A stretch of 64,000 bases of DNA from Terracidiphilus sp. Its GTDB lineage: Bacteria; Acidobacteriota; Terriglobia; Terriglobales; Acidobacteriaceae. The position numbers were made by a program, and so were the translations under genes. Of the stretch, positions 33,796 to 64,000 are shown piece by piece; position 1 is the stretch's first letter, and each line of letters starts with the position of its first letter. The notes below the pieces were generated by a model, which did no database searches, was not told the origin of the DNA, and saw only the letters and a list, made by a program, of their open reading frames with translations. The stretch is from positions 38,222 through 102,221 of the forward strand of contig JBEKKI010000008.1 of NCBI GenBank assembly GCA_050010795.1, given 5' to 3'.

Positions 33796-33839
33796 GGGTT
33801 CTCCTGATTTTCCCTGATCTCTGTTCTCTGATCTCTGTC

Positions 33840-34541: not shown

Positions 34542-34598
34542 ACCAGGTTTGAGGTTAAATCATGCGGCTTCCTCGCTGCCAGCTTCCGCTCGATCGTG

Positions 34599-34667
34599 CT
34601 AAAAGCTGATAGCTGAGAGCCGAAAGCTGTCTTCTATTCCCTAATCCCTGTTTCCTGATCCCTGTCT
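34599..34667. repeat. Adjacent GCTGANA and CCCTRWT heptamer tracts after the DUF1501 stop
   Basis: gctaaaa gctgata gctgaga gccgaaa gctg; ccctaat ccctgtt tcctgat ccctgtc. Confidence 0.8.
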
Positions 34668-34669
34668 CC

Positions 34670-35926: not shown

Positions 35927-35951
35927 ACTCCAATTCCTCAGCTATATGTCC

Positions 35952-35996
35952 CTAACTCCGCCCGCTCCGCTAACTCCGCTAACGCCGCTAACTCAG
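35952..35996. repeat. Five CTAACTCCG-type 9-mers between DUF1800 and DUF1501
   Basis: ctaactccg cccgctccg ctaactccg ctaacgccg ctaactcag. Confidence 0.8.
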
Positions 35997-36005
35997 CTGG
36001 CCCCG

Positions 36006-44094: not shown

Positions 44095-44104
44095 CCTTCA
44101 TCGA

Positions 44105-47100: not shown

Positions 47101-47254
47101 GCAGTCCGGCCTGGACGCTGATCGTCGGAAAATCCACCTGCGGCAGCGGCGCCAGCGGCAGCACCACGAACGCAATCGCGCCCACGATGGCTACGGCAGC
47201 CGTGAGCAGCGTAGTGCCCACGGGGCGCCGGATGAATGGCGCCGACAGGTTCAT
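44105..47254 (-). CDS. mdtC: RND transporter permease, MdtC-like
   Basis: FIRRPVGTTLL, GFVVDDAIVVMENI, GIVKKNAIMMIDF, RFRPIMMTT. Confidence 0.92.
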   Translation of the reverse strand: MNLSAPFIRRPVGTTLLTAAVAIVGAIAFVVLPLAPLPQVDFPTISVQAGLPGASAQIMAASVATPLERQFSHIAGITEMTSSSSLSSTNITMQFDLSRNIDGAARDVQAAINAARTYLPANLPSNPSYRKVNPADSPIMLVSLTSDKYEVTKLYDLASTILAQKLSQIQGVGQVGVQGAATPSVRVEVNPTKLESFGLTLGGVRSVLSLQNSHEPRGQFSNNGVSEDILTNDQISEAADYRPLIVGYHNGAAVRLSDVADVEDSTQNLRSAGYVDGRRGVVLVIFRQPGANIIQTVDRVKAQLPFLEAVMPQGIKTTVVLDRTTTIRASVNTVEKTLVGSVCLVILVVFVFLRSPRATLIPSVAVPVSLIGTFAMMYLLGYTLDNLSLMALTIATGFVVDDAIVVMENITRHLEAGMEPFAAALQGAQEIGFTVFSISMSLIAVFIPILMMGGIIGRLFREFAVTLSTAILISMVISLTTTPCMCAHVLRAHKEGEKHNWLYRASEKMFDGMISIYRHSLLWVLDNPGLTLVVLLLTIALNGLVIYRIPTGFFPQQDTGVIMGGLQGPQDASFPFMSFSTLSYVNIVKADPAVAHVMAYTGSGNGGFMFVALKALGTKCKESAPNCDERQTSAMDVINRLRPKMNRLPLATGILQPAQDLRIGGRGSNALYQYTIQSDNIDDLSHWGPILYQNMQRLPDLTDVNTDQQNGGLQEMLNYDRITAARLGQTPSSLNSSLCSAFCQSEVSVIYTQLNQYYVVMEVAPQYWQDPSDLNNIYFTTNRSASAGLNAMAPLATVMKQSTNTTPLQVPHTGLFPSATVSFNLKSGASLSDATREVTQMEQRLGMPSSVRGFFAGTAQAYQDSLSSEKYLVATALLAVFIVLGILYESLVHPLTIISTLPSASVGAMLALMLFHIDLNVISIIGIILLIGIVKKNAIMMIDFALQAERNEGKTTREAIFEACLLRFRPIMMTTMSAICGALPLAFGTGTGSELRRPLGITIVGGLLLSQALTLYTTPVIYLMMDRLRLRALGRTHDALPSTAEGATS

Positions 47255-50200: not shown

Positions 50201-50565
50201 TCCGAAGGAAGGAACGTCTGCCCGCCGTTGATCGACGACTGCACCTCTTCTTCGGCAACGTCGAGGCCGAGCGAGAGGCTGAATTGAAGAACGATGACCG
50301 AGACGCCGCCCGCGCTGGTCGACGTCATCTGGCTCAGCCCCTGCATCTCGCCAAACTGGCGCTCCAGCGGCGCAGTGATCGTCGTCGCCACCACGTCGGG
50401 GCTCGCCCCAGGATAAAAAGTCACCACCTGGATCGTCGGATAGTCCACCTGCGGCAGGGCCGACACAGGCAGTTGAAAGAATGCAACCAGTCCCGCAAGC
50501 AGAATTGCGGCCATCAGAAGCGACGTTGCGACCGGCCGCAGAATGAATGGTCGCGATGGACTCAT
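47251..50565 (-). CDS. mdtB: RND transporter permease, MdtB-like
   Basis: MSPSRPFILRPVATSLLM, LPQVDYPTIQV, GFVVDDAIVMIENI, RFRPIMMTT. Confidence 0.93.
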   Translation of the reverse strand: MSPSRPFILRPVATSLLMAAILLAGLVAFFQLPVSALPQVDYPTIQVVTFYPGASPDVVATTITAPLERQFGEMQGLSQMTSTSAGGVSVIVLQFSLSLGLDVAEEEVQSSINGGQTFLPSDIPVPPVYTKTNPADAPVLTLAITSDSLPLSQVEDMVDTRLAPRLSQLNGVGMVSISGGQKPAVRIQVNPVALSAYGLNMEDVRTALTQASVNSAKGNFDGPRQDYQIDANDQITSPDDYKNVVIAYSNGAPVFVKNVANVLSGVENSKQAAWMDMTPAVILNIQRQPGANTITVVNAIQKVLPQLEANLPASIKVTTLTDMTTSIQSSVHDVEFELMLTIVLVVMVIFLFLRSLRATIIPSVAVPLSLIGTFAVMYLLGYSLDNLSLMALTISTGFVVDDAIVMIENISRFLESGMPPLEAALTGAGQIGFTIMSLTVSLVAVLIPLLFMGDVVGRLFREFAITLAVTIVISAVVSLTLTPMMCSRILRHKPKEQEGRIYQASERAVNGLIAFYGRTLKVVLRYQPITLLVAVATLVLTIVLYIEIPKGFFPVQDTGVIQGISQASQSISFNAMSEKQRELAQTILQDPAVESLSSFIGADGINTTLNSGRISINLKPIEERHISASDVIRRLQKNLSQVHGMRLYMQPVQDITVDDRVSRTQYQYTLEDPDTDELNSWTDKFTAQLEKLPELEDVATDQQTGAKAIQMSIDRVTASRLGIAPTTVDNTLYDAFGQRQISTLYTQLNQYHVVLEAAPEWQQDPSKLGDLYIQSNASSGATGAGAATSFSSSASASAGSNALTTSVRYTPSSQALSAPASVLARGATGVGSPNTASSSAGTNAIPLSAFTQVHDTTEALSINHQGQFPSVTVSFNLAPNASLGTAISDIEKVVKNLHFPASLQSDFQGTAASFRNSLSNQALLILAALVTVYIVLGVLYESFIHPVTILSTLPSAGVGALLALIVCRQDLNAVGIIGIILLIGIVNKNGILIVDFALEAERQRGMDSTEAIYEASVLRFRPIMMTTMAALLAGIPLAAGTGLGSELRRPLGIAMVGGLILSQLLTLYTTPVIYIFFDRLGQRMMGHHLSRTARAEAKPGTENA

Positions 50566-51803
50566 GGAGTGGCCCCGCTCGCTGAGATCGGAATCGTCAC
50601 CTTCGAGATCACGATGTCTGATCCGTCCATCAGCTTCTGGAAGCTGCTGTTTGCCACCACGTCTCCGGGATTGATCCCCGTTACCGCAGTGTTGCCTCCG
50701 TCGGAGATTCCCGACTTTACGGTCTTCATCGCCGCCTTGTTGTTCTGGATCAGGTAAACGAAGTCAGCTGCGCCGTTGTGCTGGATCGCTGAAGCAGGAA
50801 CGAGCGTCTGGTTATCCAGCGTCTTCACCAGCAGGCGCGTATTCACAAATTCATTGGGGAAGAGCATTCCATTCGGGTTGCTGAATTCCGCGCGCAGCTT
50901 CACCGTCCCCGTCACCGTGTCGATCTGGTTATCCACGGTGATTAACCGCCCCTTTGCCAGAAGCGTCTGCTGCGTGCGGTCATATGCCTCCACCGTCAGC
51001 GGCTTGCCGCCGCGCATCTGTTCCAGCACTTCCGGCAGGTTGTCTTCCGCCAGCGTGAAGATCACGGTGATCGGCTGGATCTGCGCAACTGTCAGCAGCG
51101 GCGTGCTCGAGTTGGCCGTCACCAGGTTGCCCGGATCCACCAGCCGCAATCCCACGCGCCCGTCGATCGGAGAAGCGATGTGGCAGAACGCCACTTGAAC
51201 TTCGTCATACTGCACGTTTCCCTGGTCGTTCTTCACGGTGCCTTGATTCTGCAGCACCACCTTCTCCTGGTCCTCCAGCGTTTGCCGTGGGATCGCGTTC
51301 TTCGCCCACGCATCCTGGTAGCGTTTCAGGTCCATCTGCGCTTCGGCCAGCAGATTCTGGTCGCGATCCAGCGCGCCTTGCGCCTGCGCCAGTTGCGCCG
51401 CGTAAGGCCGCGAGTCGATATCGATGAGCGGATCGCCTTTATGAACGCTCTGCCCCTCGCGATAGTGGACAGCCGTGATCACGCCCGTCACCTGCGCGGT
51501 GATGGTGTCGAGGTTCGTCGGTGTCACTGTTCCGATGGCGTCAAGATAAACGCCGATGGAGCCCGCCTTGGCCGTGGCCACCGTAACGGGTACGGGCCCT
51601 CCCATTGCGGCCCCGCCTCGGCGAACGCCTCCCGCGCCCGCGGTGGCAGATGCGCTCGCGCTATGCTGCCTCCACACCCACACGAACAGCAGCGCAAAAA
51701 GCAGGAGAATAATCACCCAGATCCAGCGGTGGCGGCGTTTTTTTGTGGAATCTTCGGGCGCTTGCCCGGCGGCAGGATGCGATGCAAACAAAGGTTGATC
51801 CAT
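50562..51803 (-). CDS. mdtA: RND membrane fusion protein, MdtA-like
   Basis: TM anchor, SPIDGRVGLRLVDPGN, DNQIDTVTGTVKLRA. Confidence 0.92.
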   Translation of the reverse strand: MDQPLFASHPAAGQAPEDSTKKRRHRWIWVIILLLFALLFVWVWRQHSASASATAGAGGVRRGGAAMGGPVPVTVATAKAGSIGVYLDAIGTVTPTNLDTITAQVTGVITAVHYREGQSVHKGDPLIDIDSRPYAAQLAQAQGALDRDQNLLAEAQMDLKRYQDAWAKNAIPRQTLEDQEKVVLQNQGTVKNDQGNVQYDEVQVAFCHIASPIDGRVGLRLVDPGNLVTANSSTPLLTVAQIQPITVIFTLAEDNLPEVLEQMRGGKPLTVEAYDRTQQTLLAKGRLITVDNQIDTVTGTVKLRAEFSNPNGMLFPNEFVNTRLLVKTLDNQTLVPASAIQHNGAADFVYLIQNNKAAMKTVKSGISDGGNTAVTGINPGDVVANSSFQKLMDGSDIVISKVTIPISASGATP

Positions 51804-52101: not shown

Positions 52102-52200
52102 TCATTTTCGCAAAATCGACCCGGCTGCCATCGCATGGTAAACCCCGCCATCGACCACAGCGATCCCGTTGATCAGCACATGCTCGACGCCCGCCGGATT
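52102..52200 (-). pseudogene. C-terminal 32-codon remnant of an amidohydrolase (D-aminoacylase-like)
   Basis: Not in the ORF track. Translates NPAGVEHVLINGIAVVDGGVYHAMAAGSILRK*, matching the P-GI-HVLVNG-VV-DG---G--LR tail of that family. No start codon and no catalytic barrel. Confidence 0.7.
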
Positions 52201-53170
52201 ACGCAAAATCCAGGGAAGTCCTTCGCCAGGGGGAGACGATGTGGGTACCTCCATTGCCGATTACCGCACTCGCTACGTTCTCCACGGAGGTGATAATGCA
52301 CTCCTCGCCTCGGTTTTCGAGGAAGTCGATTGCCGCCTGGATTTTCGGCCCCATCGACCCCGGTGGGAATTGGCCTGCCGCCAGATACTCGCGCGCCTGG
52401 TCCATGGTGATCGTGTCGAGCCATTTCTGGCTGGGCCGGCCATAGTCGAGCGCTACGCGATCAACTGATGTAACAATGACGAGCTTGTGAGCGCGCACGT
52501 GCGTCGCCAGCATGCTTGATGCCAGGTCCTTGTCGACAACGGCTTCCACACCCACTAAACGATCGTCTTCCCAGGCCACCGGAATCCCCCCGCCTCCGCA
52601 GGCGATCACGACGACGCCGGCGTCGAGCAGCGATGAGATCGCTTCGGCCTCTAGAATTTGCATCGGGAGTGGCGAAGGCACGACGCGACGGTAGCGTCCC
52701 GGAGAGACTTCGCGCATGATCCAGTCTGGCCTGTCGCTGCGGATGCCGGCCAGCTCGCTCGCGTCATAAAAAGACCCGATCGGCTTGCTCGGATGCTGGA
52801 AGTCCGGGTCGTCGCGATCCACGAGCACCTGGGTGATCAGCGTAGCCACTTCGCGCTTGATTCCCTCGCGACGGAACAACTCGCAAACCAGCCGCTGGAT
52901 CATGTAGCCCATGCCGCCCTGGCAATCGGCGTCGCAGGTGTCGAGCGGCAAGCGCGGAACGCGCCGCTCGCCCTCCTCGACGCGAATCAGGATGTTGCCG
53001 ATCTGCGGTCCGCTGCCGTGGGTGATGGCGATTCGTGAACCGGCGTGGAACAGGGGCTTGAGATGCTCGAGCGTCTCCGCAGTGTGGGCAAACTGCAAGG
53101 GAATGGTGCCGGGTTCGCCGGGCCTGGTAATGGCGTTACCGCCCAGGGCGATCACAAGAGTTTCGGTCAT
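52199..53170 (-). CDS. arcC: Carbamate kinase
   Basis: IALGGNAI, THGSGPQIG, QGGMGY, RRVVPSP, CGGGGIPV, EAVVDKDLAS, FPPGSMGPKI. Confidence 0.96.
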   Translation of the reverse strand: MTETLVIALGGNAITRPGEPGTIPLQFAHTAETLEHLKPLFHAGSRIAITHGSGPQIGNILIRVEEGERRVPRLPLDTCDADCQGGMGYMIQRLVCELFRREGIKREVATLITQVLVDRDDPDFQHPSKPIGSFYDASELAGIRSDRPDWIMREVSPGRYRRVVPSPLPMQILEAEAISSLLDAGVVVIACGGGGIPVAWEDDRLVGVEAVVDKDLASSMLATHVRAHKLVIVTSVDRVALDYGRPSQKWLDTITMDQAREYLAAGQFPPGSMGPKIQAAIDFLENRGEECIITSVENVASAVIGNGGTHIVSPWRRTSLDFA

Positions 53171-53174
53171 GGTC

Positions 53175-54203
53175 TTAAGATCCTGTCATCTCGTAAACAA
53201 CTTCTTGGTCCGACATCGTCAGTGCCATGATCGCCTTGGCGGTATGCAGGCGGTTTTCCGCTTCCTGGTACACCACAGATTGCGGGCCATCGATGACATC
53301 GTCCGTCACCTCGTTGCCCCGATCGGCGGGCAGCGGATGCATGTACAGAGCATTCTCCGCAGCCAATTTCATGCGCTCGTTGTTGCAAATCCAGTGCCGG
53401 TATCCCTCGGCGATCCGCAGGGACTCCTTGGGGTTCGTTCCCATGGTGTCGAGACAGCCCCAGCTCTTGGGAATCACGATGTCAGCGCCGCGAAACGCGT
53501 CGTCCATGTTGTCCACGATCTCGAACTTGGTTCCGGCGCGCCGCGCGTTCTCTCGCGCCGCCTCCACCGTCTCCGGCATCAGCGCGTACTCGGGTGGATG
53601 CGCCAGCACCACGTCCAGTCCAAAGCGCGGCATCAACATGATCAGTCCTTGCGGCACGCTGAGCGGCTTGGCGTAGCTCGGCGCATACGCCCACGATACC
53701 GCCAGCTTGCGTCCGCTCAGGTTCCGTCCGAGTTTCTCGCGGATTGTCATCAGGTCGGCCAGCGTCTGGCAGGGATGGTCGATGTCGCCCTGCATATTGA
53801 TCACCGGCACATCCGCCCAGCGCGCAACTTCGCGCATGTACGCGTTGCCCTCGCCCGGAATCAGGTCGTGACGGATGGCGATCGCGTGCCCGTAGCTGGA
53901 GAGAATGATTCCTGTGTCCTTCGCGCTTTCGCCATGCGAGACCTGCATGACATCGGTGGTCAAAAAATGGGCGTGGCCGCCAAGCTGCGTGATTCCCGCC
54001 TCAAACGAGTTGCGCGTGCGCGTGGATTTGTCGAAGAACATCAGAAAGATGGTCTGATCGGGCAAATAACGATGCGGAACGCGCCCTTTGAACTTGCGCT
54101 TCAAATCGGCGGATACGTCGAGCAGGATTTCGATCTCTGCTTCGCTGTATTCTTCCGTAGTGATGTAGTCCTTGCCCTTAAAGAGCGCCTTTCTCGTTTC
54201 CAA
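53175..54203 (-). CDS. ygeW: YgeW-like knotted carbamoyltransferase
   Basis: KSTRTR, HPCQTLAD, MHPLPADRG, and the YgeW-type loop SWAYAPSYAKPLSVPQG. Confidence 0.82.
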   Translation of the reverse strand: METRKALFKGKDYITTEEYSEAEIEILLDVSADLKRKFKGRVPHRYLPDQTIFLMFFDKSTRTRNSFEAGITQLGGHAHFLTTDVMQVSHGESAKDTGIILSSYGHAIAIRHDLIPGEGNAYMREVARWADVPVINMQGDIDHPCQTLADLMTIREKLGRNLSGRKLAVSWAYAPSYAKPLSVPQGLIMLMPRFGLDVVLAHPPEYALMPETVEAARENARRAGTKFEIVDNMDDAFRGADIVIPKSWGCLDTMGTNPKESLRIAEGYRHWICNNERMKLAAENALYMHPLPADRGNEVTDDVIDGPQSVVYQEAENRLHTAKAIMALTMSDQEVVYEMTGS

Positions 54204-54236: not shown

Positions 54237-55463
54237 TCAGCCATTCTCGCCTTCGAGCGTCGTGACGTACGCCAGGGGGAAGGCAGCATAGAACTGCGCC
54301 GCTTCCACCAGGTGGCGGATCGGGACGCGTTCGATGACACTATGCGCGACGTCTTCTTCACCGGGACCGAAGCCGATGGTCGGCACGCCCATCATTCCCA
54401 TCGAGCCGACGCCGTTGGTGCTGAAGGTCCACTTGTCCACAACTGGATCGGCGTTGTGGAGCGTTCGATACGCCGCCACGGCCGAGCGCACGAGCAAATG
54501 GTCTTCTTCGAGCACCCACGTTGGATAGTACTTCTGCATCGGATACGTGAGTCCGGTATAGCTGGGCGTCTCGTACTGCAACACCTCGATCTCCGCGCCT
54601 TGCGCCGCCGGCAGGGCTTTCACCTCGGCGACCGCGCTCTCGAGCGTCTCCCCGGCGGTCAGCCGGCGGTCAAGATGGATGGAGCATGCGCCCGGCACCG
54701 CGCACAGGGAAGGAGACATCGAGCGAATCTCGGTGACGGCGATTGTTCCCTTGCCGAGAAACGCATCGTCGCGCAAACGCGTGTTCAACTCCTCGATCTG
54801 CGCGATCATCGGGACTATCTTGTAAATCGGATTGTCGCCGCGCTCCGGCGCGCTGGCATGACACGAACGTCCGCGTATGTGAACCTCGATCTCCATGCGT
54901 CCGCGGTGTCCGCGGTACACGCGCAGATTGGTTGGCTCCGTGAGCACTACGCAGTCCGGCCGGATACCGTCCTCCTTGAGAATGTAGACCCACGCCAGGC
55001 CGTCGCAGTCTTCTTCCTGCACCGATCCCACGATCCACAAAGTGTAGTCGCCTTCCAGTTCCAAATCCTTGATCATCTTGCCCGCGTAAACCATGCTGGC
55101 CATGCCGGCGCGTTGATCGCTGGCGCCGCGTCCGTAGATGAAACCGTCCTCCACTTTGCCCTTGTACGGGTCCCAGGCCCATTCCTTCGGATCGCCAACG
55201 CCGACGGTGTCGGTGTGCGCGTCCATCATGATCACGTGTTTGCCTGAGCCGATGCGTCCCAGCACGTTGCCTATGGCATCAATGCGGATTTCGTCGAAGC
55301 CCACGCATTCCATCTCCTGCTTGATGCGCTGAACCACGGGACCTTCGTGGGAACTTTCGCCGGGAATGGCGACTAGGTCGCGCAGAAAGCGGACCATGTC
55401 CGCTTCCAGCGCGTTTGCGGCGGCGAGTAAACGGGCGGAGTCAATCGTAGTTTTATCAGGCAT
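54237..55463 (-). CDS. ygeY: YgeY-family M20 hydrolase
   Basis: MDAHTDTVG, GRGASDQRAG, VQEEDCDG, RGHRGRMEI, KWTFSTNG, GFGPGEE. Confidence 0.92.
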   Translation of the reverse strand: MPDKTTIDSARLLAAANALEADMVRFLRDLVAIPGESSHEGPVVQRIKQEMECVGFDEIRIDAIGNVLGRIGSGKHVIMMDAHTDTVGVGDPKEWAWDPYKGKVEDGFIYGRGASDQRAGMASMVYAGKMIKDLELEGDYTLWIVGSVQEEDCDGLAWVYILKEDGIRPDCVVLTEPTNLRVYRGHRGRMEIEVHIRGRSCHASAPERGDNPIYKIVPMIAQIEELNTRLRDDAFLGKGTIAVTEIRSMSPSLCAVPGACSIHLDRRLTAGETLESAVAEVKALPAAQGAEIEVLQYETPSYTGLTYPMQKYYPTWVLEEDHLLVRSAVAAYRTLHNADPVVDKWTFSTNGVGSMGMMGVPTIGFGPGEEDVAHSVIERVPIRHLVEAAQFYAAFPLAYVTTLEGENG

Positions 55464-55492
55464 GTTGATGACCTGCTGTTCGCGTTCTTGAT

Positions 55493-58078
55493 TCAGCACG
55501 GTTGTAATGCTCCTTTCTTGTTGCGACTGCGGCTGTAAGGCGTGTCGGCGAGCGGCAGGCTCGTGCGCAGCTTTCCGTCCCGCTGCCAATACGCGCACGC
55601 AATGGCCGGCGCCGTCGGAATGCTCACAATTTCGCCGATGCCCTTGGCGCCGTACGCCAACTCGGCCCGGTTCTTCTCGATAATCCGGCACTCGATCTCC
55701 GGCGTCTCGGTCGAGCGCAGAAGGCCGATCGTTCCGAACTTGACTGCAGGTGCGCCATTCTTTACAGCGAACTCTTCGGTCAGCGCATAGCCCATCCCCA
55801 TCACCACGCCGCCTTCGATCTGCCCCTCCACGCCATTCGGATTGATGGCCCGCCCTACGTCGTGCGCTGCCACCACCTTCATCACTTTGCCTGCCTCGTC
55901 AAGCAGCACCACCTGCGTCGCGTATCCGTACGATACGTGGCTCATGCGGTGCGGCTTGTCGCTCGTCATCGGGTCGGTCACGCAGTCGTACTCGCCGTGG
56001 AACTCTTGGCCCTCCAATTCCGCCAGCGCGTGACGGTTCAACTGCCGCCTAAGCTCGAGCGCCGCCCTTCGCGCCGCCTCGCCCGTAATCGTTGTCTGCC
56101 GCGAAGCAGTGCTGGTGCCGCTGTCCGGCGTCACGCTGGTGTCAGGCGCATGCACCGTGAGCATTGACTTGTCGACGCCCGCCGTTTCCGAGACAATCTG
56201 CAGCACCACCGTCGCGATCCCTTGACCCATGCACGCCGCGCTGGTCGAGATCGTCACCCGTCCGCCCTCCACTTTCAGCTTCACGCGGCCTACGTCCTTC
56301 ACCCCCACGCCCTTGCCTGTGTTCTTGAACGCGCACGCAATCCCCGCGTCGGGATGCGCATCGATCACGTCCTTCACGGCGAGCAGTGTCTCCTTCAGCG
56401 CCGTCCCCTCATCGGCGATCTGCCCGTTTGAAAGCACGCCGCCCGCCTCGATCGCGTTGCGGTAACGAATCTCCCACGGCGAAATTCCTGCCGCGTGCGC
56501 CAGCAGATTCAGGTTGCTCTCCATCGCGAAACACGTCTGTGTCACGCCGAACCCGCGCATCGCGCCCGACGGAATGTTGTTGGTGTAGATCGCCCGTCCC
56601 TCGATGTCGACATTCTCGATCCGGTACGGTCCAGCCGCGTGCGTGCACGCCCGCTGCAGCACCGGCCCGCCCAGCGACGCATACGCTCCCGTATCTGCCA
56701 CAATCCGCACCCGCGCCGCGGTCAGCTTGCCGTTCTCATCGCACGCCGTCGTGCATTCAATCTCCATCGGGTGCCGCTTGGGATGCACGCGCAGGCTCTC
56801 ATCGCGGCTCAGGGTCAGCTTCACGGGCCGTCCGCTCTTCCAGGCCAGCAGCGCCGCGTGATGCTGAACCGACATGTCTTCCTTCCCGCCAAACCCTCCG
56901 CCAACGAACTTGCTAACGACCCTCACCTTCTCGCCTTCCACTCCCAGCGTCCGCACAATCTCGCGATGATCGTCGTACACGCTTTGTCCCGCGGTATACA
57001 CCGTCAGCGATCCGGGCGCTCCCGGCACGGCCAGCGCACTCTCCGGCTCCAGAAACGCATGCTCCTGCCGCGGCGTGGAATAGCGCTGCGTCACCACATG
57101 CCTGGCCGCAGCAATCGCCCGCTCCGCATCGCCCCGCTTCAACACCGTCGTCGCCAGCACATTTCCTTCGAGATGCAGCTGCGGCGCTCCCTCAGCTAAT
57201 GCCGCCTGCGGTGAAAGCAGCGGCTCGCGCTCTTCGTATTCCACGCGGACAAGCTCGATCGCCTTCCTCGCCGCCTCCTTCGTTGTTGCCGCCACCAGGG
57301 CGAGCGCATCGCCCACGTATCGCGTCTCTTCTCCTTCGGCAATCATCACCGGCCAGTCGTAGACCACGTGCCCCAGCATTCGCTCGCCCGGCACGTCGCG
57401 CGCCGTCAGCACAATTTCAACGCCGGGCAGCGCCCGCGCCGCCGCCGCATCGATCCGCTTCACCAGCGCCCGCGGAAACCTCGCCCGCAGCACGGCGCCA
57501 TGCAACATGCCCTCCACGTGCATGTCATCGACAAATTCGCCCGTCCCCAGCAGCTTCTCTTTTGCTTCCGCACGCACCGTGCGCTCGCCCACGCGCGCTC
57601 CCGCCGCCTCCACGTCATGCACCCTGCCGTTGGCCAGAGCCCCCGCAGCCAGTTGAATCGCCCGCTCCACCTTCGCGTATCCCGTGCAGCGGCACAGGTT
57701 GTAGCGGATCGCCGACTTCACCTCCGCCGCTGTCGGCGCGGGATTCGCGTCCAGCAAAGCCTTCGCGCTCATCACCATGCCCGGCATGCAGAATCCGCAC
57801 TGCACCGCGCCCACTTCGCCGAAGGCCCACGCATACACCTCGCGCTCCCGCGGCGAAAGCCCCTCCACCGTCATCACCGATTTCCCGTGTACCCTGGCCA
57901 CAGTGAGCGTGCACGCGCGTGCCGCCTTGCCGTTCACGATCACGGAGCACGACCCGCACACTCCGTCGCCGCATCCGTTTTTGACTGAAGTCAGGCGCGC
58001 GTCCTCGCGCAGGTATTCGATCAGACTCTTGTCCGTCTCTGCCGCGGCCTCCCGCTGGTTTAGCGTGAAGCGGAACAT
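55493..58078 (-). CDS. Single-chain molybdenum hydroxylase (2Fe-2S plus Mo domains), selenium-dependent xanthine dehydrogenase type
   Basis: CGDGVCGSC, VQCGFC, CRCTGY, QEHAFLEPE, GGGFGGKED, AMRGFG, GAKGIGE. No FAD domain. Confidence 0.9.
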   Translation of the reverse strand: MFRFTLNQREAAAETDKSLIEYLREDARLTSVKNGCGDGVCGSCSVIVNGKAARACTLTVARVHGKSVMTVEGLSPREREVYAWAFGEVGAVQCGFCMPGMVMSAKALLDANPAPTAAEVKSAIRYNLCRCTGYAKVERAIQLAAGALANGRVHDVEAAGARVGERTVRAEAKEKLLGTGEFVDDMHVEGMLHGAVLRARFPRALVKRIDAAAARALPGVEIVLTARDVPGERMLGHVVYDWPVMIAEGEETRYVGDALALVAATTKEAARKAIELVRVEYEEREPLLSPQAALAEGAPQLHLEGNVLATTVLKRGDAERAIAAARHVVTQRYSTPRQEHAFLEPESALAVPGAPGSLTVYTAGQSVYDDHREIVRTLGVEGEKVRVVSKFVGGGFGGKEDMSVQHHAALLAWKSGRPVKLTLSRDESLRVHPKRHPMEIECTTACDENGKLTAARVRIVADTGAYASLGGPVLQRACTHAAGPYRIENVDIEGRAIYTNNIPSGAMRGFGVTQTCFAMESNLNLLAHAAGISPWEIRYRNAIEAGGVLSNGQIADEGTALKETLLAVKDVIDAHPDAGIACAFKNTGKGVGVKDVGRVKLKVEGGRVTISTSAACMGQGIATVVLQIVSETAGVDKSMLTVHAPDTSVTPDSGTSTASRQTTITGEAARRAALELRRQLNRHALAELEGQEFHGEYDCVTDPMTSDKPHRMSHVSYGYATQVVLLDEAGKVMKVVAAHDVGRAINPNGVEGQIEGGVVMGMGYALTEEFAVKNGAPAVKFGTIGLLRSTETPEIECRIIEKNRAELAYGAKGIGEIVSIPTAPAIACAYWQRDGKLRTSLPLADTPYSRSRNKKGALQPC

Positions 58079-59466
58079 TTTGCATGCTCCTCTTGAACGG
58101 CCGGCCGGTGTGCGCAAATCTTCTCGTTATACTCGCGCACCTTGGCGTATTGCGCGTCCCAAAAGCTCTGGCTGCGCATCGAGTCGAGAAACTCCTTCGT
58201 GTAACCGAACTTCAGCCAATCGTTTTCCTTTTGCTTGAAGAGCCGCTCTTTCGTCTCCGCCTTGCGAAAGTCAAAGACCTCGTCGCTTGACGCGTCGAGA
58301 AAGATGTCGCTCGCCCAACGGTCCAGCACCGTTGGTGTCAGCTCCAGGTAGCGGCCCTCCAGGTCGCGCAGCACGGAGTGGTAACGGTCAAACCCATCCG
58401 TTGCCACCGTCACCACGTTGTCCCCTGGGCCCAGCCGCAGATATTTCGCCAGCTTGATCGCGCCCAGCACGTTGCACACGCCCGACGGCCCGAACAGTTC
58501 CCGCAGTCCCAGCGCAAACTCCCGTTCCACGCCCATCCGCACCATGGTCTCCAGTCCGTCGTGGAAGATCTTCACGCCCTGCACCGTCTCTTCGTCCCTG
58601 ATCAGAATCACGAAGTCGGTATTGAGCACGTTGTGAATCAGCGTGCACATCTTGTCGCCGATGCCCTCGATGCGATGCTGCCCGCGGCCTCCGGTCGCCA
58701 GCGTGGAGCACTCATACGGCTCCAGTGCGGCCACCTTCGCCTCTGGAAACATCGCCTTGATCTGATCGCCCGCTGCAATCGTCCCCGCCGAGCCCGGCGC
58801 CGAGACAAAACCCGCGATCCGCCCGTTGCCCACGCCCTTTACCGCATCAGCTGCGCTCCCGCCCGTGACGTGCCGGTGAAACCGGTAGTTCGGGAACAGC
58901 TCGAATTGCGCCAGCGCCTTGTTTTTGGGGTTCTTCATCAGCTCGCGCGTTTTTTCGAGCGTCAGGATCACGTCCGACTCCGTGCCCGGCGTCAGCTCCA
59001 GTTCTCCTCCGTACTTCCTGATGCGCTCGTAACGCTCCTTGCTCATGTTGTCCGGCATGATCACGATCGCGCGGAAGCCCAGCAGCTTCGAGATGTACGC
59101 GGTCCCAATGCCGAAATTGCCCGTCGACGGCCCCAGTATCGTGTGCTCGCCCGGCACGATCTCTCCATCCACCAGCGCTTCCATCAGCGTCGAGTACGCC
59201 GCGCCTACCTTGTGCGAACCGGAAGGAAATCGGTTCCCGAGCATCACCACCACGTTCGCGGCCACGCCCGTCAGCGCCGAGGGCAGCACCACCTTCCGCA
59301 TCTCGTTGGCCGCATCGCGCCAGTTGATGTTGAACAGATTGATCGGATCGAGCTCGTCCTTGTCGAGCGCCTCAAGCGCCCTTGCGCGCACGCTCTTATC
59401 GATCAATCCCGGGTTGAGCATCTCGTCGTAACTGGGACCCATCGGAACTTTCGCCATCGTTCTCAC
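58060..59466 (-). CDS. Fold-type-II PLP enzyme (cysteine-synthase-like) of unknown function
   Basis: PSGSHKVG (PLP Lys), STGNFG, PGSAGT phosphate loop, HRIEGIG. C-terminal extension of roughly 90 aa. Confidence 0.82.
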   Translation of the reverse strand: MRTMAKVPMGPSYDEMLNPGLIDKSVRARALEALDKDELDPINLFNINWRDAANEMRKVVLPSALTGVAANVVVMLGNRFPSGSHKVGAAYSTLMEALVDGEIVPGEHTILGPSTGNFGIGTAYISKLLGFRAIVIMPDNMSKERYERIRKYGGELELTPGTESDVILTLEKTRELMKNPKNKALAQFELFPNYRFHRHVTGGSAADAVKGVGNGRIAGFVSAPGSAGTIAAGDQIKAMFPEAKVAALEPYECSTLATGGRGQHRIEGIGDKMCTLIHNVLNTDFVILIRDEETVQGVKIFHDGLETMVRMGVEREFALGLRELFGPSGVCNVLGAIKLAKYLRLGPGDNVVTVATDGFDRYHSVLRDLEGRYLELTPTVLDRWASDIFLDASSDEVFDFRKAETKERLFKQKENDWLKFGYTKEFLDSMRSQSFWDAQYAKVREYNEKICAHRPAVQEEHAKCSASR

Positions 59467-59547: not shown

Positions 59548-60804
59548 TCAACTCGCCGCTGCCGCAGCCACCGCTTCCCGAACCTCATCCATCTCCGGCC
59601 GCACCGCAATCGGGCGGCCCACGGCGCGCATCGCGCTTTGCACGTCCTTCAATCCATTCCCCGTCATCACCAGAACCGCGCTCTCGCTGTGGCCTATCAC
59701 GCCCGACGCGACGGCCCGCCGCACGCCCGCCGCACAAGCCACACCCGCGGGTTCGCCAAACACGCCCGTTCTTCGTGCCACGAGCGTCATCGCTTCAAGA
59801 ATCTCTGCGTCCGATACCGCGATGAACGCGCCGCCCGACTCGTTGACGGCGCGCATGCCTTTGGCAAAGTTCCGCGGATGCCCCACGGCGATCGAATCGG
59901 CAAGCGTGTTCCCCTCACATGGCGTGAGCGCGCTTCGATCGCGCCACGCCGTAACAAACGGCTGGCAGCCCTCGGCCTGCACTCCCAGAACACGCGGCAG
60001 GCGCTCCAGAATCCCCAATCGGCACATTTCCCTCAGCCCCGACCACACGCCGCCGATCGTGCATCCATCGCCCACCGATACCACCACCCAATCGGGAAAT
60101 CTGCCGTCCCCGATCCGCGAAAACTGCTCCGCCATCTCCAGCGAAACTGTCTTCTTGCCCTCGATCAGGTATGGGTTCACGGCGCAGTTGCGGTTGTACC
60201 AGCCGAACTCCGCGCTGGCATTCATGCACAGTTCCCATGCCTCGTCGTATGTGCCCTGCACCTGGAAAACTCGCGCTCCGTACACCAGCAGTTGCGCCAC
60301 CTTGGCCTCCGGCGCGCGTGCCGGAACAAAAATCGTCGCCGCAATCCCCGCTGCCGCCGCCATGCCTGCCAACGACGACGCTGCGTTGCCTGTCGACGCG
60401 CACGTCACCTGCGCCGCCTTCCGCTCCAGCGCCTTCACCACGCCCAGCGCGCTCGCGCGATCCTTGAACGACGCCGTCGGGTTCCGTCCCTCATCCTTCA
60501 CCCAGCACCGCGCCACTCCCAATTCGCTCGCCAGCCGCGGCGCATCGTAGAGCGGTGTCCAACCCACCTGCAGGTGCGGAATCAACTCCGGCGACGCCAC
60601 GGGCAGCAGCGGCAGATAGCGCCACATCGAAAGCTCGCTATTTCCCTTGAGCGTGTCCGCATTCAGCTCCCGCCGCACCGCTTCGTAGTCGTACTCCACA
60701 TCCAGAATGCCCTCGTGATATCCGCAGGCAGGGCAGTAGTATTCCGCCTCCAGTGTCGAGTACGTTCGCCCGCAATGAATGCATCTGAGTCCCGTAACGT
60801 GCAT
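59548..60804 (-). CDS. Threonine-synthase-like PLP enzyme with N-terminal Zn ribbon
   Basis: CIHC/CPAC, VGWTPL, NPTASFKDR, ASTGNAASS, SVGDG, EPAG, TGNGLKD. Confidence 0.85.
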   Translation of the reverse strand: MHVTGLRCIHCGRTYSTLEAEYYCPACGYHEGILDVEYDYEAVRRELNADTLKGNSELSMWRYLPLLPVASPELIPHLQVGWTPLYDAPRLASELGVARCWVKDEGRNPTASFKDRASALGVVKALERKAAQVTCASTGNAASSLAGMAAAAGIAATIFVPARAPEAKVAQLLVYGARVFQVQGTYDEAWELCMNASAEFGWYNRNCAVNPYLIEGKKTVSLEMAEQFSRIGDGRFPDWVVVSVGDGCTIGGVWSGLREMCRLGILERLPRVLGVQAEGCQPFVTAWRDRSALTPCEGNTLADSIAVGHPRNFAKGMRAVNESGGAFIAVSDAEILEAMTLVARRTGVFGEPAGVACAAGVRRAVASGVIGHSESAVLVMTGNGLKDVQSAMRAVGRPIAVRPEMDEVREAVAAAAAS

Positions 60805-60850: not shown

Positions 60851-61945
60851 TTACCGAGGCATCGTGATCGCCCGCAGCTTGCAGCGCGTAATGCACAGCC
60901 CGCACTTCGCGCACTTCTCCTCGTCGATTTCCACGATCCTCGCGTTCTTGTCCATGCGAATCGCGCCATACCCGCAGCTCTTCTCGCAGATCCCGCAAAG
61001 AGCGCAGTGCTCCATATTCACTTTCGGCGCGGTCTCCATGTGTGGTGCGCCGCATTGCCGCATCATGCGCACCGTGAGCCCGCTGATCTCGTCCACTGAC
61101 TTGTAATCATGCTCGTCGAGAAACTCATTCAGCTCGCGAGCGATCCTCCCGTACACCGTCGGCCCGCGCAGAATCGCCTCCGTGCACACCTCGACGGCCA
61201 GCGCGCCTGCCATCAGCATCTCCGCCGCGTCGCGCCCGTTGCTGATGCCGCCCACGCCGACAATCGGAATCTTCACCGCCCGCGCCGCGTCGTACACGCA
61301 GCGCAGTGCCAGCGGCTTGATCGCAGTGCCCGACAGCCACCCGAACCCGTCCTTGCTCCCCATCAGCGGCAGCCCGGTTTCGATGTCGATGCTCAGGCAC
61401 GGCCCGAATGAGTTGATCATCACCAGCGCATCCGCGCCCGCATCCTCCAGCGCCAGCGCCAGCTCCTGGATGTTCGGGTGCGGGCTCAGCTTCATGAACA
61501 CCGGCACATCCACCGCTTCCTTGGCCGCGCGCAGCGCATCGATGATCGGCCCGATATTCGTTCCCACATAGTGCGTCGAAAGCTCCAGCGCATCGGCAAA
61601 CGGCTTCACCATGGGCGCCAGCTCCCGGATCTGCCTGGCCGTGTACCCCAGGCCCACAATCACCGGCAGGCCCGTCGCCCGCGCCAGCTTGTACTCGGAT
61701 TCGATCCACTGTTCTTTGGGTAGCTCTGACCACAGTTCGGCGTTCAAGAATCCGCCGCGAATCTCCGCCATGCATGGCTGCGGCACCTCGGCCGGGGCGG
61801 CGGAAATGGTTTTGGTCACGAGCCCGCCGGCGCCGCCGCTCGCAGCCGCCTCGAGCGCTGCGCCGTCTTTCGAAGGCGGTCCTGCCGCAGGCAGAATCGG
61901 ATTCCTGAATTCCAGACCGCAGATATTGACGCGTAGATTTGCCAT
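60851..61945 (-). CDS. PreA/DHODH-like FMN TIM-barrel protein with C-terminal 2x[4Fe-4S]
   Basis: FRNPILPAAGP, VTKTI, MKLSP, LSGTAIKPLALR, GVGGIS, CALCGICEKSC and CAKCGLCITRC. Confidence 0.88.
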   Translation of the reverse strand: MANLRVNICGLEFRNPILPAAGPPSKDGAALEAAASGGAGGLVTKTISAAPAEVPQPCMAEIRGGFLNAELWSELPKEQWIESEYKLARATGLPVIVGLGYTARQIRELAPMVKPFADALELSTHYVGTNIGPIIDALRAAKEAVDVPVFMKLSPHPNIQELALALEDAGADALVMINSFGPCLSIDIETGLPLMGSKDGFGWLSGTAIKPLALRCVYDAARAVKIPIVGVGGISNGRDAAEMLMAGALAVEVCTEAILRGPTVYGRIARELNEFLDEHDYKSVDEISGLTVRMMRQCGAPHMETAPKVNMEHCALCGICEKSCGYGAIRMDKNARIVEIDEEKCAKCGLCITRCKLRAITMPR

Positions 61946-62154: not shown

Positions 62155-63498
62155 ATGGCGGAGTCTGCCAATTTGCTGGTCGGCAACGGCCGCGTCATCA
62201 CCCACGACGACGGCCAGCCCTTCCTCGAGAACGGCTGCATTGCCATCCAGGACGGCCTCATCGCCGCCGTCGGCCCCACCGCCGAAATCGTGCCCGCCAA
62301 TCCCGACGCGCGTTTTCTCGATGCGCAGGGCCGCATCATCATGCCCGGCCTTATCAATGCTCATACGCATCTCTACAGCGCCTTCGCCCGCGGCATGGCG
62401 CTCAAGGATGATGCCCCCGGTAATTTCATGCAGATTCTCGAGCGCCTCTGGTGGCGGCTCGACAAAGCTCTCACCCTCGACGACGTCTACTGGAGCGCCA
62501 TGGCCGGCATGGTCGAGTGCATCCGCAACGGCGTCACCACCGTCTTCGACCACCACTCCAGCCCCCACGCCGTTCGCGTCAGCCTTTTCCGCATCGCCGA
62601 GGCCGCGCGGCAAACCGGCCTCCGCGCCTGTCTCTGCTATGAAGTCTCCGACCGCGACGGCGCAGAGATTGCCACGCAGGGCATCGAGGAGAATCGCGCA
62701 TTCCTCGAGACCTGCATCCGCCGGCCTGAAAGCCTCATCCGCGGCCTCTTCGGCCTGCACGCCTCGTTCACTCTGGGCGACGCGACTCTTGCCCAATGCC
62801 GCGAGGCTGCCGCCGATCTCGGCGCCGGATTCCACGTGCACACCGCGGAAGCTCTTTCAGACGTCGACCATTGCCTCCGCGAGCACAACATAGGAGTAGT
62901 CGAGCGCTGGCGCCAGCGCGGCATCCTCGGCCCGCACACGCTCGCTGCGCATTGTGTCCACGTCAGTGAGCGCGAAATCGATCTCCTGCGCGAGTCAAAA
63001 ACCGCGGTCGTGCACAACCCGCAATCCAACATGGCCAACGCGGTTGGCTGCGCGCCGGTCCTCGAAATGATGCGCCGCGGCACCCGCGTCGGCCTCGGCA
63101 CTGACGGCTACACCGCGGACATGTTCGAGTCTATGAAGGCTGCCTCGCTTCTCCAGAAGCATCACTCCGGCGATCCGCGCGCCGCATGGTCCGAGCCGCC
63201 GCTCATGCTCTTCCGCGAAAACTCGGGCCTAGCGTCGGAACATTTCGGCCAGCCCGTCGGCACGCTCACGCCCGGCGCTGCCGCCGACATCATCCTCGTC
63301 GACTACGACCCGCCCACGCCGATCGACGCCGCCAACCTTTCCGGCCACATCTTTTTTGGCCTGACGGGCCGCGCCGTCTCCACCACCATCGTCGGCGGCC
63401 GCATCCTGATGCACAACCGCAAACTCCTCACCATCGACGAAAGCGAAGTGATGGCCCACGCCCGCGCCGCCGCCGCCGAAGTCTGGAAGCGGTTCTAG
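62155..63498 (+). CDS. ssnA: Amidohydrolase SsnA
   Basis: MPGLINAHTHLYSAFARG, LWWRLDKAL, DHHSS, LCYEVSDRDG, FGLHASFTL, GFHVHTAE, HNPQSNMANAVG, GTDG. Confidence 0.93.
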   Translation: MAESANLLVGNGRVITHDDGQPFLENGCIAIQDGLIAAVGPTAEIVPANPDARFLDAQGRIIMPGLINAHTHLYSAFARGMALKDDAPGNFMQILERLWWRLDKALTLDDVYWSAMAGMVECIRNGVTTVFDHHSSPHAVRVSLFRIAEAARQTGLRACLCYEVSDRDGAEIATQGIEENRAFLETCIRRPESLIRGLFGLHASFTLGDATLAQCREAAADLGAGFHVHTAEALSDVDHCLREHNIGVVERWRQRGILGPHTLAAHCVHVSEREIDLLRESKTAVVHNPQSNMANAVGCAPVLEMMRRGTRVGLGTDGYTADMFESMKAASLLQKHHSGDPRAAWSEPPLMLFRENSGLASEHFGQPVGTLTPGAAADIILVDYDPPTPIDAANLSGHIFFGLTGRAVSTTIVGGRILMHNRKLLTIDESEVMAHARAAAAEVWKRF

Positions 63499-63533: not shown

Positions 63534-64000
63534 TGTCATCCTGAGCGAGTCGCATGGGTGACGAGCCGAAGGACCTGCATTTGCTTTTCGTTCTTGTTCT
63601 TGCGGCTAGGGTGGGAGTCTGTCCACTGACCCCCTGACCCCTGATCTCTGATCTCTGATCTCTGATCTCTGTACACCTGTCATCCCGAGCGCAGCGGTTT
63701 GGGGCCCCGGATTCGCAACGCGAATATGGGGCAAGCGGAGCCGAAGGACCTGCTTTTGCTTTTCGCTCTTGTTCTTGCGGCTAGGGTGGGAATCTGTCCC
63801 CTGACCCCTGACCTCTGAACTCTGTACACCTGTCATCCCGAGCGTAGCGGTTTGGGGCCCCGGACTCGCAACGCGAATATGGGGCAAGCGGAGCCGAGGG
63901 ACCTGCATTTGCTTTTCGTTCTTGTTCTTGCGGCTAGGGTGGGAATCTGTCTACTGACCCCTGACCCCTGATATCTGATCTCTGTACACCTGTCATCCCG
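63534..64000. repeat. Tandem array of composite 144-160 bp units, continuing past the window end
   Basis: Units start with tgtcatcc at 63534, 63678, 63831 and 63991. Shared blocks: gagccgaaggacctgc, ttgcttttcg(t/c)tcttgttcttgcggctagggtggga, ctgacccctg and (ctgatct)n. Confidence 0.92.

Follow-up and report, generated by a model that had tools for sequence, protein, structure and literature searches.

The threonine synthase-like (ThrC-like) protein encoded in the window (the whole 64,000-nucleotide stretch of Terracidiphilus sp. DNA analysed here) is very probably an undescribed PLP enzyme of anaerobic urate/purine breakdown and not a maker of threonine. Its operon represents a variant form of the cluster for the reductive (2,8-dioxopurine) urate pathway; it lacks YgeX and HyuA and carries two extra PLP enzymes, the ThrC-like protein itself and a long CysK-like protein (Table 1).

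The ORF is intact, with a GGAGAG Shine-Dalgarno sequence 8 nt 5' of the ATG, and its product of 418 aa compares with 418–424 aa in the homologs. The protein matches Pfam PALP (4e-73) and lies above the cutoffs of two threonine synthase models, NCBIfam NF006050 (304.2 against 303) and TIGR00260 (207.8 against 167.1). Searched against the PDB, it hit ThrC entries down to 1e-64, with 36–40% identity to the solved ThrC structures. An AlphaFold2 model (mean pLDDT of 94.1) was used for fold assignment; ThrC structures ranked top for it in Foldseek, and fold-type II racemases were also among the structural neighbors. Moreover, the PLP lysine is kept as Lys in all 80 relatives compared. By PALP domain, PLP lysine and the scores on both models, the protein thus belongs to the threonine synthase sequence family. 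Two of the zinc-ribbon cysteines (C8 and C24) are invariant in the alignment of the ThrC-like family (alignment A1), and the other two (C11 and C27) are at least 90% conserved. Decay into a pseudogene is ruled out by the intact ORF, the invariant substitutions described below and the high-confidence model. A contig from a peat metatranscriptome matches a portion of the gene at 97% identity. As clues to function, the fusion partners in longer representative matches (inositol monophosphatase, a LeuA_dimer domain, and a histidine-kinase ATPase with a receiver) are uninformative or belong to other branches.

Table 1. Features of the ThrC-like gene and of the surrounding gene cluster (positions in the window).
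Feature	Position	Strand	Basis or remark
Carbamate kinase, YqeA-like	52199..53170	-	NF009007 329.8 vs cutoff 266; 39% identity to E. coli YqeA
Carbamoyltransferase, divergent YgeW-like	53175..54203	-	40% identity to E. coli YgeW; under YgeW and OTC cutoffs
YgeY-family M20 hydrolase	54237..55499	-	TIGR03526 581 vs cutoff 321; 58% identity to E. coli YgeY
Selenium-dependent-type xanthine dehydrogenase (XDH) homolog, 2Fe-2S and Mo-binding domains	55493..58078	-	TIGR03311 1341 vs cutoff 830; Pfam
Long CysK-like PLP enzyme, 465 aa, N- and C-terminal extensions	58060..59457	-	Pfam PALP
ThrC-like PLP enzyme, 418 aa	59548..60804	-	N-terminal zinc ribbon and fold-type II PALP domain
VGDGCT, PLP-phosphate/substrate loop (ThrC VGNAGN); Asp246 for Asn188	60058..60075	-	D, G, C invariant in 80/80
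NCAVNPYLIEGKKT, loop matching ThrC phosphate loop; Leu213 for Arg160; conserved Arg205 precedes	60148..60189	-	Alignments
STGNAAS loop; Ala141 equivalent to Thr88	60376..60396	-	Ala in 80/80 relatives
PLP Schiff-base lysine K114 (SFKDR), K61 of T. thermophilus ThrC	60463..60465	-	Alignment
Zinc-ribbon motif CxxC...CxxC (C8, C11, C24, C27), CIHCGRTYSTLEAEYYCPAC	60724..60783	-	Translation
UacX/PreA-like reductase, FMN (DHO_dh) and 2x[4Fe-4S] domains	60851..61945	-	Pfam DHO_dh, Fer4
SsnA amidohydrolase, divergently transcribed	62155..63498	+	NF005540 621.5 vs cutoff 444; 36% identity to E. coli SsnA

In a HMMER alignment to four solved short threonine synthases (2zsj, 1uim, 2d1f and 6cgq), the motif N-SVNP[YHV]R[IL]EGQKT of the solved enzymes aligns to NCAVNPYLIEGKKT, and R160 (1uim chain numbering) stands opposite Leu213; MAFFT agrees. 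The replacement of this Arg by Leu, as read in the initial annotation, is therefore upheld by both alignments. Nine relatives that were picked via ssnA, blind to the motif, have Leu or Met at the same position. In T. thermophilus numbering, the changes in the pocket are R160L, T88A, S155A/C, N188D, A189G, G190C and N191T, with a new R153 and K164; at the motif level, STGNT has become STGNA, N-S has become N-C-A, VGNAGN has become VGDGCT, and EGQKT has become EGKKT. A new Arg205 (motif NRN) stands at the start of the loop and a new Lys217 within the same loop. R160, T88, S155 and N188 are presumably contacts of the substrate phosphate, as in the complex of T. thermophilus ThrC with a substrate analogue (PDB 1V7C), and from the presumed constellation for the phosphate of O-phosphohomoserine (T88, N154, S155, R160 and N188) N154 alone is retained. 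Among the 80 relatives, which come from about nine phyla, the substitutions at T88, S155, R160 and N188 hold throughout. A88, R153, D188, G189 and C190 never vary and T191 is kept in 79; all six lie outside the pattern used to find these relatives, and so do most of the remodeled positions. Judging from these alignments, the distal substrate pocket of the family is rebuilt and was then frozen by selection, and we infer that phosphate binding was lost. Since Arg205, Lys217 and Asp246 were gained and the pocket was not just neutralized, the pocket may still accommodate an anion or a ureido group; Arg205 and Lys217 could even rebuild an anion site, which counts against the lyase reading given below. 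Compared with the short bacterial ThrC (EC 4.2.3.1; A. aeolicus 2zsj, T. thermophilus 1uim/1v7c), with which it has fold-type II in common, the ThrC-like protein keeps the PLP lysine, the carboxylate loop STGN, N154, NP..EG.KT and TGxGLKD, whereas it adds the N-terminal zinc ribbon, carries Q164K, GDGCT in place of GNAGN and an Arg before N154, has a loop one residue longer, and is found in the context of purine catabolism, not in a thr operon.

The gene set of the pathway cluster (XDH homolog, YgfK/UacX reductase, SsnA, YgeY, carbamoyltransferase and carbamate kinase) is complete in the window, and these genes support a place for the ThrC-like gene in the diaminopropionate-forming reductive urate pathway. 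The XDH homolog is the probable urate/2,8-dioxopurine oxidoreductase. The same set, with either YgfK or UacX and a YgeW-type carbamoyltransferase, is found in the reductive urate clusters of E. coli, C. sporogenes and C. difficile (Li et al. 2025; Liu et al. 2025), UacX being the clostridial alternative to YgfK (Li et al.). In contrast to those clusters, the window has neither HyuA nor YgeX, and it adds the two PLP enzymes, which appear in neither paper (Li et al. 2025; Liu et al. 2025). Using tblastn, E. coli HyuA (at 1e-3), YgfK and ThrC were not found in the window, and E. coli YgeX gave a fold-level match only and no canonical YgeX (DpaL). The next 10 kb outside the window likewise hold no Pfam-recognizable candidate for either YgeX or HyuA, and the window has no ThrA or ThrB homolog; an Rfam search near the operon returned one chance-level match only. 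The window-type arrangement is repeated at loci L001–L003 and L006–L038, and HyuA was found at some loci of close relatives (L014 and L095).

At least 583 ThrC-like matches were confirmed in a collection of GTDB species-representative genomes, and relatives occur in about nine phyla. The copies in Negativicutes are 65–72% identical to those in Acidobacteriaceae. The patchy spread suggests horizontal transfer, and the ThrC proteins with the canonical motif form a separate branch among the representatives. Forty GTDB loci anchored on the ThrC-like gene have 8 kb or more of flanking sequence to either side (the full-flank loci). Of these, 31 hold SsnA, 32 XDH, 25 YgeY, 27 the CysK-like protein, the usual partner, and two YgeX, and no ThrA or ThrB homolog was found within 8–10 kb at any of them. 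SsnA lies within 1.5 kb of the ThrC-like gene at 49 of 72 loci; the gene directly adjoins ssnA in most phyla, and ssnA, not XDH, is its most consistent neighbor. In Negativicutes, the ThrC-like and CysK-like genes are accompanied by an amino-acid ABC transporter, a UacY-like amidohydrolase and an M20 hydrolase, with neither XDH nor SsnA, and this setting puts the ThrC-like enzyme among the later, amino-acid steps of the pathway. At L125-type loci it is the sole downstream-type enzyme beside SsnA-YgfK-XDH and a purine-nucleoside-type ABC transporter; there is no CysK-like gene within 10 kb, and YgeX is also absent. At L125 itself the gene is followed by genes for a class-V aminotransferase and a D-2-hydroxyacid dehydrogenase.

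Taken as a whole, these observations would be best explained by a catabolic PLP enzyme of the reductive urate/purine pathway performing a beta-elimination on diaminopropionate or albizziin, a sequence-based proposal to which we give about an even chance. The three-carbon amino acid at the end of the pathway, 2,3-diaminopropionate or albizziin (its 3-ureido precursor), would be bound as an external aldimine, and its beta-amino or ureido group would be held by Asp246, Arg205 and Lys217 in the place of the phosphate in ThrC. Beta-elimination would then give aminoacrylate, and its hydrolysis pyruvate and ammonia, which is the step of YgeX (DpaL) in E. coli and Clostridium. The CysK-like partner probably works alongside and may take the other enantiomer or another intermediate. 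A precedent for the ThrC fold acting on C3 substrates is given by the best full-length structural match with the N-terminal domain included, CapA2 of Alistipes (9k3c; TM 0.81, 21% identity), which we take to be a cysteate synthase from the name of the NCBIfam model (CysteaSynCapA). In cysteate synthases (archaeal TIGR03844; Bacteroidetes CapA) a ThrC-fold enzyme was recruited to a three-carbon substrate and beta-chemistry, and the substrate used is phosphorylated. The ThrC-like protein differs from them in scoring below the cutoff of TIGR03844 (91.8 against 324.9) and in its genomic context. On the other side, the published intermediates of the pathway are D-configured and the ThrC-type fold normally handles L-amino acids, which counts against a lyase for diaminopropionate or albizziin. 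Furthermore, SsnA is an early step of the pathway whose products have no free amine, and the fact that the ThrC-like gene is mostly glued to ssnA counts against a terminal lyase. A literature search for threonine-synthase-like proteins together with ssnA, XDH or purine degradation, or for albizziin together with PLP lyases, returned only the two pathway papers of 2025.

The known pathway ends with YgeX turning 2,3-diaminopropionate into pyruvate (Li et al. 2025; Liu et al. 2025). The initial annotation had proposed the ThrC-like protein as a replacement for this enzyme, which is plausible but unproven. The absence of a canonical YgeX from the window and the adjoining 10 kb speaks for it. In addition, a second sample was drawn from metagenomes, with ssnA as the anchor and 8 kb or more of flanking sequence; here YgeX is present at none of the seven loci that carry the ThrC-like gene and at 11 of the 22 that do not (Fisher p = 0.026, on a small sample and without phylogenetic correction), a depletion that, like the mere two YgeX loci among the 40 above, fits a DpaL-like terminal role. 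However, the ThrC-like gene, the CysK-like gene and a true YgeX (50–52% identical to that of E. coli) all occur at loci L062 and L085, so the functions are not strictly redundant and simple replacement is not the whole story. The ThrC-like protein and DpaL/YgeX (EC 4.3.1.15) are in the same fold-type II PLP class and the same pathway clusters, but BLAST gave only 26% identity over 198 residues to E. coli YgeX, and the protein scores 61.6 on the DpaL model NF006058 (cutoff 276), so that it is not a YgeX ortholog by TIGR03528 / NF006058. D120 of E. coli YgeX (TTTDGNHG), which we assume to be the catalytic Asp or second catalytic base, acting on the D-isomer, faces ASTGNAA in the BLAST alignment, where there is no Asp.

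The place of ygeX is also claimed by the CysK-like protein. Its family measures 450–495 aa across phyla; the protein scores 138 on the cysK models (cutoffs about 350) and matches cysteine synthases in the PDB down to 1e-30, and its homologs bear merely generic database names ('cysteine synthase' or 'PLP-dependent enzyme'). In clusters of Bacteroidota and of Blastocatellia type, it is the CysK-like and not the ThrC-like gene that fills the gap between ygeW and ygeY, the slot of ygeX in E. coli; the CysK-like gene holds this slot at L042, L051, L057, L061 and L072. The CysK-like protein could then be the real stand-in for DpaL and the ThrC-like enzyme could do another job coupled to SsnA, which we consider rather unlikely. 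Such a job might be the racemization or epimerization of a D-configured C3 amino acid, a beta-replacement with water that turns diaminopropionate or albizziin into serine, or the salvage of a side product. The position beside ssnA in most phyla and the co-occurrence of the three PLP genes would suit this division of labor, as would the racemases among the structural neighbors. The reaction of threonine synthase closes with an addition of water at C-beta, and the aminotransferase and dehydrogenase at L125 would suit a route from serine via hydroxypyruvate to glycerate; these neighbors, however, come from one lineage only, and at the residue level there is no pointer to racemase activity. Moreover, the CysK-like gene likewise occurs together with YgeX (L062, L085 and L113) and is thus no more exclusive than the ThrC-like gene, and the L125-type loci hold the ThrC-like gene with neither of the two. 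We regard as unlikely, and put forward only as speculation, a reading in which the ThrC-like and CysK-like proteins form a two-enzyme PLP module marking a variant of the 2,8-dioxopurine pathway that is widespread in the environment. The ThrC-like reaction, for example a urea/carbamate beta-elimination from 3-ureidoalanine (albizziin) or a hydrolytic beta-replacement to serine, would be new to the enzyme catalogue and would bypass the D-specific HyuA/YgeX route and the canonical diaminopropionate ammonia-lyase.

A genuine threonine synthase, in which the Arg for the phosphate has merely shifted from the end of the loop to its start (R160 to R205) and the purine cluster is incidental, would account for the model scores, for the identity to solved ThrC structures and for the conserved new Arg205 and Lys217 in one loop. 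This is very improbable, because three more of the presumed phosphate ligands are replaced, one of them by Asp, the canonical-motif proteins branch separately, the spread is patchy in a manner suggesting horizontal transfer, and the gene is nearly always found in ssnA/XDH clusters in about nine phyla and never beside thrA or thrB in the full-flank loci. The view of the initial annotation that the protein is no threonine synthase has accordingly gained ground, a housekeeping ThrC being very unlikely. We also considered a non-catabolic role in maturation or cofactor supply for a selenium-dependent molybdenum hydroxylase, for example in the handling of Se or S amino acids. The neighboring XDH is of the selenium-dependent type and the beginning of its gene overlaps the end of the CysK-like gene in the window, and in Neomoorella the ThrC-like and CysK-like genes lie on either side of XDH, beside yqeB and yqeC homologs. 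Nevertheless, neither yqeB nor yqeC is present in the window cluster, ssnA and not XDH is the steadiest neighbor, and in Negativicutes the pair occurs without any XDH among amino-acid transporters and ureido-hydrolases; since the pair thus occurs without XDH, this role was rejected as scarcely credible.

It was not until 2025 that the anaerobic urate route was elucidated, in E. coli and clostridia from the gut. A version of the urate cluster in which the terminal lyase YgeX is usually missing, with two PLP enzymes conserved in its stead, is present in about nine phyla of bacteria from soil, peat, sediment and gut; databases throughout label these two enzymes 'threonine synthase' and 'cysteine synthase'. 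If the catabolic role of the ThrC-like enzyme is true, a systematic misannotation would be corrected (at least 583 matches in GTDB representatives and thousands of metagenome proteins), and the threonine synthase fold would gain a new activity. The scoring of urate degradation in metagenomes would change as well, because Pfam PF00291, via which Li et al. scored 'YgeX' in gene neighborhoods, also matches the ThrC-like and CysK-like proteins and cannot separate them from YgeX. Furthermore, alternative enzymes would become available for engineered urate-lowering strains.

The ThrC-like gene, which encodes a PLP enzyme of the threonine synthase fold, begins at an ATG with GGAGAG 8 nt upstream, 47 nt past the stop of the preceding gene; the shorter start chosen in the initial annotation is right, since the homologues are 418–424 aa long. 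The protein has a single Pfam domain (PALP, 4e-73), a zinc ribbon CxxC...CxxC in residues 8–27 and the retained PLP lysine of SFKDR. Its score on the NCBIfam threonine synthase model NF006050 (304.2) is barely over the cutoff of 303, and that on TIGR00260 is 207.8 (cutoff 167). The AlphaFold2 model, with 20 homologues as input, is confident (mean pLDDT 94.1) and is grouped by Foldseek with threonine synthases (TM on target 0.83–0.85), the top full-length match being the PDB entry for CapA2 of Alistipes (TM 0.81). Going by its NCBIfam model name we regard CapA2 as a probable cysteate synthase, which would make it a case of the threonine synthase fold serving a three-carbon substrate.

Genes of the operon, called with Pfam, NCBIfam models and comparison with E. 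coli proteins and given in their order on the minus strand, and other features in and next to the window
Feature	Position	Strand	Remarks
UacX/PreA-like FMN/Fe-S reductase	60851-61945	-	first in operon
ThrC-like PLP protein	59548-60804	-	418-residue ORF
CysK-like PLP protein	58060-59457	-	465 aa; directly downstream of ThrC-like gene
Selenium-dependent-type xanthine dehydrogenase (XDH)		-	TIGR03311, 1341 bits
YgeY		-	58% identity to E. coli YgeY
Carbamoyltransferase	53175-54203	-	40% identity to E. coli YgeW
Carbamate kinase		-	after carbamoyltransferase
SsnA			divergent from the operon; 621 bits
RND efflux system	42562-51803	-	outer-membrane factor, two AcrB-like pumps, membrane-fusion protein; directly downstream of carbamate kinase; retained in metagenome contigs with an identical ThrC-like gene (L001-L003)
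Cyclophilin-type PPIase tandem pair, then DUF1501/DUF1800 pair	33265-38303	-
~153-nt unit, three tandem copies	63563-64000		92-96% alike; starts 65 nt past ssnA stop, runs off window end
Spurious repeat-containing ORF	63606-63908	-	arises from the ~153-nt units
ORFs of 444 and 405 aa by ssnA	L001 3155-5945		past window's right end; zero Pfam matches

The gene content of this operon is that of the reductive urate pathway reported in 2025, in which an XDH homologue produces 2,8-dioxopurine, YgfK or UacX reduces it, YgeW (or UacY) and YgeY take off two ureido groups, and YgeX (DpaL) finally converts 2,3-diaminopropionate to pyruvate and ammonia. With E. coli proteins as tblastn queries, HyuA, YgfK and E. 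coli-type ThrC were not found in the window, and YgeX gave only a fold-level match, on the ThrC-like gene itself; the next 10 kb, read on a metagenome contig that carries the gene in identical form, added nothing recognisable. The remainder of the window holds unrelated housekeeping genes besides the RND system, and near the operon neither a riboswitch nor any other known RNA element turned up. Contigs of a peat metatranscriptome match stretches of the operon, the ThrC-like gene among them, at 90–97% identity. The carbamoyltransferase does not reach the curated cutoff of the model for YgeW or of those for ornithine and putrescine carbamoyltransferases; because of these scores and its low identity, it may act on another substrate than YgeW does. 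True YgeW (62–66% identity) occurs in Bacteroidota clusters.

In HMMER alignments with four solved short threonine synthases (2zsj, 1uim, 2d1f and 6cgq; 1e-64 to 1e-56), NCAVNPYLIEGKKT lies opposite N-SVNP[YHV]R[IL]EGQKT. Arg160 of the T. thermophilus chain is opposite Leu213, and MAFFT agrees, which bears out the claim that the substrate-phosphate Arg is replaced by Leu. Both alignments show that the remodelling exceeds this single change: T88A turns STGNT into STGNA; N-C-A stands in place of the N-S dipeptide, which puts A or C at S155 and lengthens the loop by one residue; VGNAGN is changed to VGDGCT (N188D, A189G, G190C, N191T); Q164K turns EGQKT into EGKKT; and an additional Arg, R205 in the motif NRN, stands at the loop start. 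On balance one Arg and three polar ligands are lost and one Asp, one Arg and one Lys are gained. We take T88, N154, S155, R160 and N188 to be the substrate-phosphate holders in the T. thermophilus ThrC-analogue complex (PDB 1V7C). Given the aligned substitutions and these ligand roles, the pocket appears remodelled, more than neutralised, and its mixed Asp/Arg/Lys character would suit a ureido group no less than a bare ammonium group.

This pocket is widespread. A search of 1.8 billion cluster representatives gave 1612 proteins at E ≤ 1e-30; among the nearest 150 representatives, nearly all carry NRN..NP.[LTM].EGKKT and few the canonical NS.NP.R[IL]EGQKT. One representative with the Leu motif (P0125, 718 aa) has an N-terminal inositol-monophosphatase-family domain, either a real fusion or an assembly artefact. 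Scanning 185,579 GTDB species-representative genomes for NP[YFL]L[VI]EGKK yielded at least 599 matches, of which at least 583 are confirmed relatives. The best 80 of these come from Acidobacteriota (Acidobacteriaceae, Blastocatellia, Thermoanaerobaculia), Bacillota (Negativicutes, Desulfosporosinus, Desulfitobacterium, Neomoorella, Halanaerobiales), Bacteroidota, Ignavibacteria, Chlorobiaceae, Myxococcota, Planctomycetota and Chloroflexia. In all of these 80, positions 88/153/188/189/190 (T. thermophilus numbering) are A/R/D/G/C, and position 191 is T in 79; every one lies outside the scan pattern. To judge from this invariance, the new pocket is under purifying selection. Nine more relatives, reached via ssnA without using the motif, likewise replace the Arg, by Leu or Met, and keep STGNA and VGDGC.

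Of 40 GTDB loci where the ThrC-like gene is flanked by at least 8 kb each way, 32 have XDH, 31 SsnA, 27 the CysK-like gene, 25 YgeY, 6 HyuA and 2 YgeX, and none has ThrA or ThrB. In 49 of 72 loci the distance to SsnA is within 1.5 kb, and the gap is often about 20 bp. On the evidence as a whole we regard the ThrC-like protein as a conserved PLP member of a widely distributed variant of the reductive purine pathway, and a role as housekeeping threonine synthase is very improbable. That it is a true threonine synthase whose Arg has migrated, with R205 as the candidate residue, is likewise unlikely.

The Acidobacteriaceae cluster exists in two versions, one with carbamoyltransferase, carbamate kinase and YgeY, the other with a UacY-like amidohydrolase and a different M20. 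They match, inside a single family, the E. coli versus C. difficile dichotomy described by Li et al. (bioRxiv 10.1101/2025.05.19.654654). In the sister clusters of the second kind (L014-L029, L089, L095) the proteins are a 532-aa Amidohydro_3 and a distant M20 (33% identity), and two of these clusters place HyuA between CysK-like and XDH. HyuA is scarce near ThrC-like genes; since some close relatives have it (L014, L095, L021), it is probably encoded at another site and has not been replaced. In 16 loci of Bacteroidota and others (e.g. L042, L048, L051, L057) the reductase position between ssnA and XDH is taken by a ~677-aa Fe-S protein with few Pfam matches and 36% identity to part of E. coli YgfK, which looks like a shortened YgfK-type reductase.

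The CysK-like family accompanies the ThrC-like gene in most phyla. Its members (450–495 aa, two main branches) share an N-terminal extension, are separate from E. coli CysK and are named only 'cysteine synthase' in databases; in the window protein both terminal extensions are conserved, and its stop overlaps the XDH start.

The initial annotation proposed that the ThrC-like enzyme replaces DpaL. The rarity of YgeX nearby stands in its favour, and in ssnA-anchored metagenome loci YgeX is found in 0 of 7 with the ThrC-like gene versus 11 of 22 without it (Fisher p = 0.026, a small sample with phylogeny ignored). Furthermore, in the L125 lineage the ThrC-like protein is the sole downstream-type enzyme next to SsnA-YgfK-XDH and a nucleoside-type transporter. 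Downstream of it (L125 1033-8226, minus strand) lie a PnrA/Bmp-type nucleoside ABC transporter, a 573-aa class-V aminotransferase and a D-2-hydroxyacid dehydrogenase, neighbours that hint at a serine/hydroxypyruvate branch. In Negativicutes the gene occurs with an amino-acid ABC transporter, a UacY-like amidohydrolase, an M20 hydrolase and CysK-like, and XDH and SsnA are absent, which places it at the amino-acid end of the pathway; a selenium-cofactor role, beside an XDH of selenium-dependent type in the window, is unlikely. Against replacement, true YgeX coexists with both ThrC-like and CysK-like in one cluster of Desulfosporosinus sp. FKB (L062) and of a Desulfitobacterium MAG (L085), the aligned ThrC-like loop offers no equivalent of YgeX D120, and the published pathway has D-configured intermediates. 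Moreover, in Bacteroidota/Blastocatellia-type clusters CysK-like lies between ygeW and ygeY, the ygeX slot of E. coli, and at one locus (L113) it stands beside YgeX without ThrC-like. The main rival is a swap of roles, with CysK-like as the lyase and ThrC-like acting as a racemase, as a serine-forming hydrolase or in some other activity tied to SsnA. We give about an even chance to the proposal that the ThrC-like enzyme would carry out terminal β-elimination on a C3 amino acid (diaminopropionate or albizziin), covering the YgeX step with CysK-like as partner.

The reductive urate pathway is already known; neither its ThrC-like and CysK-like members nor the version lacking YgeX has been described, and no report tying threonine-synthase-like proteins to the pathway was found in the literature searched. 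According to the Figure 3g legend of Li et al. (2025, bioRxiv 10.1101/2025.05.19.654654), Pfam PF00291 served to score 'YgeX' in ssnA neighbourhoods. Because PF00291 also matches both the ThrC-like and the CysK-like proteins, YgeX may be less widespread than reported. The finding is of good interest for research on purine catabolism and PLP enzymes.
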